Source: Escherichia coli
GTDB taxonomy: Bacteria; Pseudomonadota; Gammaproteobacteria; Enterobacterales; Enterobacteriaceae
Strand: one strand, 5' to 3'
Assembly (NCBI RefSeq): GCF_016026235.1
Contig: NZ_CP065613.1
Length of the DNA: 64,000 bases
Of this stretch, positions 32,775-33,499 are shown in pieces. The translations under genes were made by a program, and so were the position numbers. The notes beneath the pieces were generated by a model. That model was not told where the DNA came from and searched no databases. It saw only the letters and a list, made by a program, of their open reading frames with translations. Positions within the stretch are counted from its first letter, which is position 1. Each line of letters begins with the position of its first letter.

Positions 32775-33161
32775 ATGTTTCTGAAACAGGATACGTTTAA
32801 TTATGAAAAACAGTCCGTGGTGCTCAGTGAGCTGTCCGGGCTGCAGAGAATTGAATATCTGACGTTTGTTCAGCAGCGAACGGCAAAGTTTGATGCACAG
32901 GAGGGAGAACTGCCGGAGGCTGAACGACAGATTGCTTTTCTGCGTATGGGAATGGATATCAATGCCTGGCTGGTTTCCCGCTCACTGTGGAATGCTGAGC
33001 AGTCTCAGGATGTTGAGACGCTTTGCGCATCCATTATGACAACATGGTCGTATGATGCGCTGGGCGCGGGGGCGGAGAGGGTTCTGTCGCTGAGCGGTAT
33101 GGGGACCATTGAGAATGCCGGGGATGATGATCATGAGGCGCTGACGCCGGAAAAGTCCTGA
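32775..33161 (+). CDS. G: tail assembly chaperone G
   Basis: MFLKQDTFNYEKQSVVLSELSGLQRIEYL... matches lambda gpG (MFLKTESFEHNGVTVTLSELSALQRIEHL). Confidence 0.8.
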   Translation: MFLKQDTFNYEKQSVVLSELSGLQRIEYLTFVQQRTAKFDAQEGELPEAERQIAFLRMGMDINAWLVSRSLWNAEQSQDVETLCASIMTTWSYDALGAGAERVLSLSGMGTIENAGDDDHEALTPEKS

Positions 33162-33499
33162 CGCGGGAAATGCAGTTTGTCATGCGGCTTGCCCGGGAGT
33201 TCCGGCGGGCAGACTGGCGGCGGATGCTGTCGGAAATGTCGGCCACTGAGCTTGGTGAGTGGGGCGATTATTTCCGGATGCAGAGCTTCAGTGATGTGTG
33301 GATGGATGCGCAGTTTGCCTCGCTGAAGGCATTGATCGTGAGAATGGTGTCCGGCAGCAGCGATGCTGCGGTGGCTGATTTCAGCCTTTTACCGGAAGAG
33401 AACGGGATACCGGAGCGAACGGACGAAGAACTGATGCATCTTGGGGAAGGTATTTCCGGAGGTGTGCGTTATGGACCAGATAGCCAACCTGGTCATTGA
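32775..33499 (+). CDS. T: tail assembly chaperone G-T fusion (predicted -1 programmed frameshift near 33147-33155)
   Basis: T-frame opens at 33137 in the -1 frame relative to G and encodes a gpT-like sequence; the G frame ends CCG GAA AAG TCC TGA. Confidence 0.55.

Follow-up and report, generated by a model that had tools for sequence, protein, structure and literature searches.

Gene organization of the G–T locus

The window analysed here is a stretch of 64,000 nucleotides of Escherichia coli DNA (contig NZ_CP065613.1), and the element in question is the junction between the overlapping tail genes G and T of a lambda-like prophage, at which a -1 ribosomal frameshift is predicted to produce a G–T fusion protein (GT). 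The major tail gene and the tape measure gene are separated by two overlapping open reading frames (ORFs), of which the second is in the -1 frame relative to the first, and the gene order is V-G-T-H (Table 1). A sequence-only reading of the stretch had proposed a G–T tail chaperone frameshift, with the T frame opening at 33137 and G stopping at 33159-33161. All of these coordinates were confirmed on the sequence, and the proposed identity was borne out by the gene order, the domain families, the -1 relation and a colinear alignment with lambda GT.

Table 1. Features of the tail gene region, in window coordinates
Feature	Position	Strand	Evidence or remark
Z	30983-31567		Lambda-like tail gene cluster; Pfam
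U	31552-31965		Lambda-like tail gene cluster; Pfam
V, major tail tube protein with C-terminal immunoglobulin-like domain	31976-32716	+	Pfam Phage_TTP_12 4e-66, Big_2 5e-11; upstream of G
Terminator-like hairpin GCCCCGG-TTAT-CCGGGGC, then T run	32736-32759	+	Between V stop and G start
G, tail assembly chaperone, 0 frame, 128 amino acids	32775-33161	+	Pfam Phage_TAC_2 E 2.7e-40
Shine-Dalgarno (SD)-like GAGG	33135-33138	+	10 nt upstream of heptamer; possible weak stimulator
G/T overlap, 22 nt	33137-33158	+	Sole stretch where a -1 shift can join G to T
T frame, -1 relative to G	open from 33137, TGA 33497-99	+	Pfam Phage_tail_T E 5e-15
Candidate slip site G_GAA_AAG (GGAAAAG)	33149-33155	+	P-site codon GAA 33150-52, A-site codon AAG 33153-55
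T segment read after predicted shift	33155-33499	+	First codon GTC 33155-57
G stop codon TGA	33159-33161	+	3 nt past heptamer
H, tape measure protein	33471-36512	+	Pfam TMP_2 1e-46, Tape_meas_lam_C 2.5e-24; downstream of T

The ATG at 32775 was also called as the G start by RefSeq, with an alternative ATG at 32772, and a GGAG at 32765-32768 is located 6 nt before the start at 32775.

The candidate slip site within the overlap

The -1 frame is closed upstream by a TGA at 33134-33136, so the interval available for the shift, put at about 25 nt in the sequence-only reading, is the 22 nt of the overlap. The overlap reads G GCG CTG ACG CCG GAA AAG TCC, with the G frame ending in ...CTG ACG CCG GAA AAG TCC TGA. 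Only one of its seven 0-frame codons, the AAG that is preceded by A, can re-pair in the -1 frame. The earlier choice of the off-rule G_GAA_AAG as the only slip candidate was therefore upheld, and the heptamer is also invariant outside the lambda sub-clade, as described below.

The heptamer departs from the X_XXY_YYZ rule by one base, since its first three bases (G, G and A at 33149-51) are not identical, and tRNA-Glu on GGA needs a G·U pair at the middle position (PMC6924986). The second part of the rule holds, with YYY being AAA and A_AAG at 33152-55 in phase with the G frame, and the same bases form an in-phase Z_ZZN tetramer. The site also belongs to the intermediate XXYYYY class (GG AAAA G at 33149-55, phased X_XYY_YYZ), which has been described as a heptamer class (PMC5009743) and which PRFect lists for annotated phage frameshifts under the name 'twofour' (PMC10885494). 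The motif GGAAAAG by itself is not unusual in the window, with 16 occurrences against 9.8±3.4 expected; what is beyond chance is its phase, its place inside the overlap and its invariance among relatives.

A shift at this position would give a GT fusion of 127 + 114 = 241 amino acids with the junction ...ALTPEK/VLTREMQF..., and from the layout of the overlap and the conservation of the heptamer we consider it highly likely that a -1 shift at 33149-55 makes GT. A -1 mRNA might also arise if RNA polymerase slipped on the four consecutive A residues, a possibility for which no specific point in favour was found. The run is too short; where transcriptional slippage is known to occur, the tract needs to comprise ~7 or more identical bases. 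Transcriptional slippage was rejected on the length of the A run and is regarded as next to impossible here. Runs with n>8 have been cited for T (PMC3711429).

Comparison with phage lambda

Fusion proteins were predicted and aligned for the window, lambda, Gifsy-1, Fels-1 and Gifsy-2. The fusions were colinear across the junction, and the junction Lys was invariant in all five. The lambda junction is ...SAGK followed by VFDGELSFALKLAREM, beginning VFDGELSF, and the window junction is ...TPEK followed by VLTREMQFVMRLAREF, beginning VLTREMQF; overall, the predicted window fusion was 34% identical to lambda GT. At the DNA level, the sites are GCG GGA AAG in lambda and CCG GAA AAG in the window, so that the heptamers are one base apart. 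By this alignment, the window site is the positional homologue of the proven shift site of lambda, where the G/GT -1 frameshift occurs at G_GGA_AAG (Levin, Hendrix & Casjens 1993; Xu, Hendrix & Duda 2004, 2013, 2014, cited in PMC5009743) at a frequency of ~4% (PMC3296357).

The two systems share homologous G and T domains, the order V-G-T-H, the -1 direction, the position of the Lys-Val junction and the A-site AAG, and both are without a conserved RNA structure. They differ in the P-site codon, which is GGA (tRNA-Gly) in lambda and GAA (tRNA-Glu) in the window, where re-pairing needs the middle-position G·U. The G stop also follows the site after one codon in the window but after five codons in lambda, and the window has an SD-like GAGG 10 nt upstream, to which nothing in the lambda sub-clade is comparable.

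Conservation and distribution of the heptamer

Seventeen phage records, among them mEp460, cdtI, Tritos, Ayreon, HannyBb and phi458, matched this region of the window at 96–97% identity, and the junction was identical in the three that were aligned (mEp460, Ayreon and Tritos). Because the 17 matching records, at 95–99% identity, have propagation hosts, among them E. coli K12, C and MC1061, phages with this junction can be taken to build tails. CCG GAA AAG was also present in the Salmonella prophages Gifsy-1, Gifsy-2 and Fels-1 at 67–71% nucleotide identity.

Two scans of viral contigs provided 160 further loci. Outside lambda's own group, an in-phase G_GAA_AAG was located inside the overlap in 73/73 loci, representing 30 distinct ±50-nt contexts with GT protein identity down to ~47%. 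The viable phages mEp460, cdtI, Ayreon and Tritos are among these loci, as are Gifsy-1, Gifsy-2 and Fels-1. Across these contexts the heptamer was the only invariant block 5′ of the conserved T-coding sequence, and the preceding 45 nt were almost without a conserved column. The codon before the heptamer was CCG, GCG or CTG, encoding different amino acids (P, A, L) but always ending in G. The G stop was found one codon past the site in 25 of the 30 contexts and five codons past it in the remaining ones. At one locus (L063) the T frame opens merely 6 nt before the heptamer, leaving a permitted shift window of 16 nt.

Given the encoded amino acids and the phage's own codon usage, in which AAG accounts for the minority (31%) of Lys codons, the probability of NNG GAA AAG is ~0.06–0.11 per lineage, or ~7e-6 for five independent lineages. 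A scan of viral contigs with a degenerate pattern, which admitted synonymous and canonical variants in the window-type context, returned CCG GAA AAG in 58/58 true junctions; the 7 other matches were in unrelated genes. In a neighbour-joining tree of 96 distinct GT proteins, G_GGA_AAG was confined to lambda's sub-clade and all other deep branches had G_GAA_AAG, including the sister group of the lambda sub-clade (L084-87), which has this heptamer in an otherwise lambda-like context.

As judged from these comparisons, the nucleotide-level conservation of the heptamer is strong, and the off-rule heptamer is the norm in the family and not something specific to this window. Since it is unchanged across a large group of enterobacterial phages, the heptamer is very probably functional, and the site, in a lambda-like prophage of E. 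coli, very probably represents an ordinary lambda-type G/GT frameshift of the tail chaperone. A decayed site, meaning a lambda heptamer that acquired a G to A change in a defective prophage no longer making GT, would account for the single-base difference from lambda and for the poor slipperiness of the variant in vitro (PMC6924986). The heptamer is, however, present in isolated, propagating phages, is the state of all deep family branches save lambda's sub-clade and is kept at GT identities below 50%, and decay is considered extremely improbable.

Several individual loci deviated from the general layout. In the lambda-like locus at ~1540-1600 of contig IMGVR_UViG_2695420576_000005 (L068 and L088), G ends early (...SPEQALV*), T is in the G frame after the stop and the heptamer is out of phase, probably through prophage decay or an error in the assembly. 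In L021, L028 and L051 the T frame was cut short (to 54 codons in L021) or G was truncated or rearranged, and these are probably defective prophage copies.

Among more distant relatives, G_GCA_AAA followed directly by TAG was found in L055, L058, L067 and L070 (~1590-1600), where the P-site tRNA (tRNA-Ala) cannot re-pair on GGC, and G_GAA_AAA directly before TAG was found in L066. In L075-L079 and L082, both GAG GAA AAG and GCA AAA TAG are within the overlap. A Lys codon preceded by A is the sole constant across the distant G–T relatives, and the immediate stop codon recurs.

Proposed mechanism and related shift sites

Under the proposed mechanism, most ribosomes translating G would stop at TGA 33159-61 to give the chaperone G, and a small fraction would slip one base back on G_GAA_AAG and read on in the T frame to give the 241-residue fusion, which, as in lambda, would connect the tail tube protein with the tape measure protein. 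The driving step would be the move of tRNA-Lys, of which E. coli has a single species (anticodon mnm5s2UUU), from AAG to the better-matched AAA. In the P site, tRNA-Glu (mnm5s2UUC) would move from GAA to GGA, keeping two Watson–Crick pairs (G:C and A:U) with G·U at the middle position. The site would be intermediate between a full heptamer and an A_AAG tetramer, and the AAG-to-AAA slip by tRNA-Lys is very probably the central step of the shift.

This mechanism may be compared with published slip sites. No tetramer in E. coli comes close to A_AAG in its tendency to shift, and the three most effective heptamers include G_GGA_AAG (PMC4066793). Intermediate heptamers include G_GU in T7 gene 10 and G_GA in umbraviruses, dianthoviruses and insect flaviviruses (PMC5009743). 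Variants of the dnaX heptamer with one G·U mismatch retain 28–44% frameshifting when stimulated; a change from A·U to G·U costs ~5 kJ/mol, partly offset by -2.9 kJ/mol for the A-site move from AAG to AAA, in a data set that does not extend to middle-position mismatches (PMC6787027).

T7 gene 10 (G_GUU_UUC) and pea enation mosaic virus (PEMV) and dianthoviruses (G_GAU_UUU) resemble the window in having an XXYYYY site with incomplete P-site re-pairing, and PEMV requires a stop codon 3 nt after the site, the same spacing as in the window (PMC5009743). These sites are in different genes and hosts, however, and need strong or long-range RNA stimulators, none of which is detectable in the window. 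IS1222 (G_CGA_AAG) and Bacillus subtilis cdd (A_CGA_AAG) share with the model for the window the core slip of tRNA-Lys from AAG to AAA, at low frequency (PMC5009743; PMC4066793), but in the window partial re-pairing is open to the codon before AAG, and conservation extends over all seven bases rather than the tetramer only. The dnaX site (A_AAA_AAG) likewise has an A-site AAG and an SD-like sequence ~10 nt upstream, yet it also has a strong downstream hairpin and shifts at ~50–80%, whereas the window is without a hairpin, and its SD-like element is a short GAGG and no more than a possible stimulator.

The shift might take place at the same position by slippage of tRNA-Lys alone on A_AAG, with re-pairing of tRNA-Glu not being useful and the G_GA prefix being conserved for something else, such as context or E-site effects. 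The distant relatives described above, which retain just the Lys part, are consistent with this, as are the A_AAG-only sites used by IS1222 and present in B. subtilis cdd (PMC5009743). A tetramer would not require, however, that G 33149 and GAA be invariant in 30 contexts despite the changing preceding amino acid, and tetramers alone are near background without strong stimulators (PMC4066793). Because the Lys codon is the only family-wide constant, this model stays alive as a subsidiary rival to a slip on the whole heptamer, but it is considered somewhat unlikely.

Possible stimulators and evidence against frameshifting

In both sequence and spacing, the GAGG at 33135-38 agrees with the experimentally derived criteria for SD-like stimulators used in PMC4066793. 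By these published criteria, SD-like motifs were present in 22/30 G_GAA_AAG contexts, against a background of 0.21, and in 0/31 G_GGA_AAG contexts; examples are AAGGAGGTG in L033 and GGAGG in L063. The duplex energy of the window GAGG is -5.6 kcal/mol, which is unremarkable at the 16th percentile within its own gene. In a synonymous-shuffle control with amino acids fixed, SD-like motifs were observed in 11/15 compared with 7.1 expected (P=0.024, uncorrected for relatedness). A stimulatory role for the upstream GAGG is suggestive only. The stop codon 3 nt downstream is a possible helper, by analogy with the PEMV layout G_GAU_UUU_UGG_UAG. An Rfam search returned one chance-level match (sR41, E 0.67) and no known RNA family.

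A number of observations weigh against efficient frameshifting at this site. In a reconstituted E. coli system, AUG GAA AAG served as an 'unfavourable' control and gave mainly the 0-frame product (PMC6924986), and A_AAG without a stimulator is near background, as noted above. No evidence for a downstream structure was found, as single-sequence folds were no better than shuffles (z -0.96 and -1.31) and the consensus fold of 13 lineages had an energy of only -2.7 kcal/mol, without compensatory pairs or covariation; a downstream stimulatory structure was rejected because neither type of folding supports one. For the most part, the SD-like element can be put down to the acidic residues in which the G tail is rich, since GAG or CAG followed by G-initial codons easily gives rise to such motifs. 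GT in this clade is itself a predicted fusion, known from sequence alone, and the ATG found 9 nt past the G stop (33170-33172) could in principle yield free T in the window. We infer the occurrence of the shift, its efficiency and any help from the GAGG or the stop codon; because AUG GAA AAG gives mainly the 0-frame product in vitro, the natural site would be weaker than that of lambda unless assisted, and its efficiency is probably below lambda's ~4%.

If T were made from ATG 33170 by ordinary or termination-coupled initiation, no frameshift would be needed, and this is the codon at which RefSeq/PGAP and the phage records start T. In half of the lineages, however, the ATG is replaced by CTG or CTT (Gifsy-1, Gifsy-2, Fels-1, L063, L069 and L084-87) while the heptamer does not vary, and the nearest purine-rich run (GGG 33165-67) is just 2 nt from the ATG. 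In addition, lambda T acts only within GT (PMC5009743), and free initiation would leave the selection on synonymous positions of the heptamer unexplained. Free-standing T was rejected as the main route because its start is not conserved, and this route is considered very unlikely.

Neighbouring genes and modules

The start of H overlaps the end of the T frame by 29 nt (33471-33499), compared with an overlap of 8 nt in lambda (10542-10549, NC_001416). The hairpin at 32736-32759 corresponds to an annotated terminator in the mEp460 and Ayreon records and would reduce transcription of G, T and H relative to that of the abundant tube protein V.

The region 28197-30293 is occupied by a single 698-residue ORF in which a Clp protease domain (residues 43-203) and a phage capsid domain (402-695) are joined. 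Since both domains are in one ORF, the head module is not lambda-like, unlike the tail module. At the CFSAN029787 locus, G–T was 100% identical over the 728-nt query, and the head was of the lambda type (S49 peptidase, decoration protein and separate capsid gene). The heads of CFSAN029787 and the window differ, and one tail module is therefore common to different head modules.

Annotation and significance

In every record examined, G and T are annotated as two genes. RefSeq/PGAP and the phage records let T begin on its own at ATG 33170 (33170-33499 in the window; L001, L003 and L168) without ribosomal slippage, and the Ayreon record places the T start further downstream still. The module was found at ≥95% identity in 1834/5426 complete E. 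coli genomes, and with G and T annotated separately, the GT fusion is therefore absent from the annotations of about one-third of these genomes. Frameshift finders restricted to X_XXY_YYZ, such as the search in PMC4066793, cannot see G_GAA_AAG.

Frameshifting in these phages is already known, as the Gifsy-1 and Gifsy-2 records describe T as a product of frameshifting, and the present case is a modest variant of a known system. No accessible description was found of the heptamer as an off-rule, conserved majority state, although Xu et al. 2004 may already list it. Likewise, no open-access paper was found that links GGAAAAG with a phage tail gene, and nothing relevant was found in the PRFect supplement.

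The gain in understanding is incremental, as the setting of the G:GT ratio by a low-level -1 shift is already well understood. The variants that occur naturally at this homologous site (G_GGA_AAG, G_GAA_AAG, G_GAA_AAA-stop and G_GCA_AAA-stop), among them the heptamer used as a non-slippery control in vitro, form a series that could be used to gauge the weight of P-site re-pairing in vivo in E. coli. We put forward as a tentative and on balance unlikely combination that G_GAA_AAG, rather than being a defect that is tolerated, would be the usual selected G–T signal in enterobacterial lambda-like phages, with lambda's G_GGA_AAG derived, and that the weak heptamer, the SD-like sequence ~10 nt upstream and the stop codon 3 nt downstream would together set a different G:GT ratio. 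If this were true, the G:GT ratio and tail assembly would be doubly sensitive to host tRNA thiolation, as tRNA-Glu and tRNA-Lys both carry mnm5s2U34.
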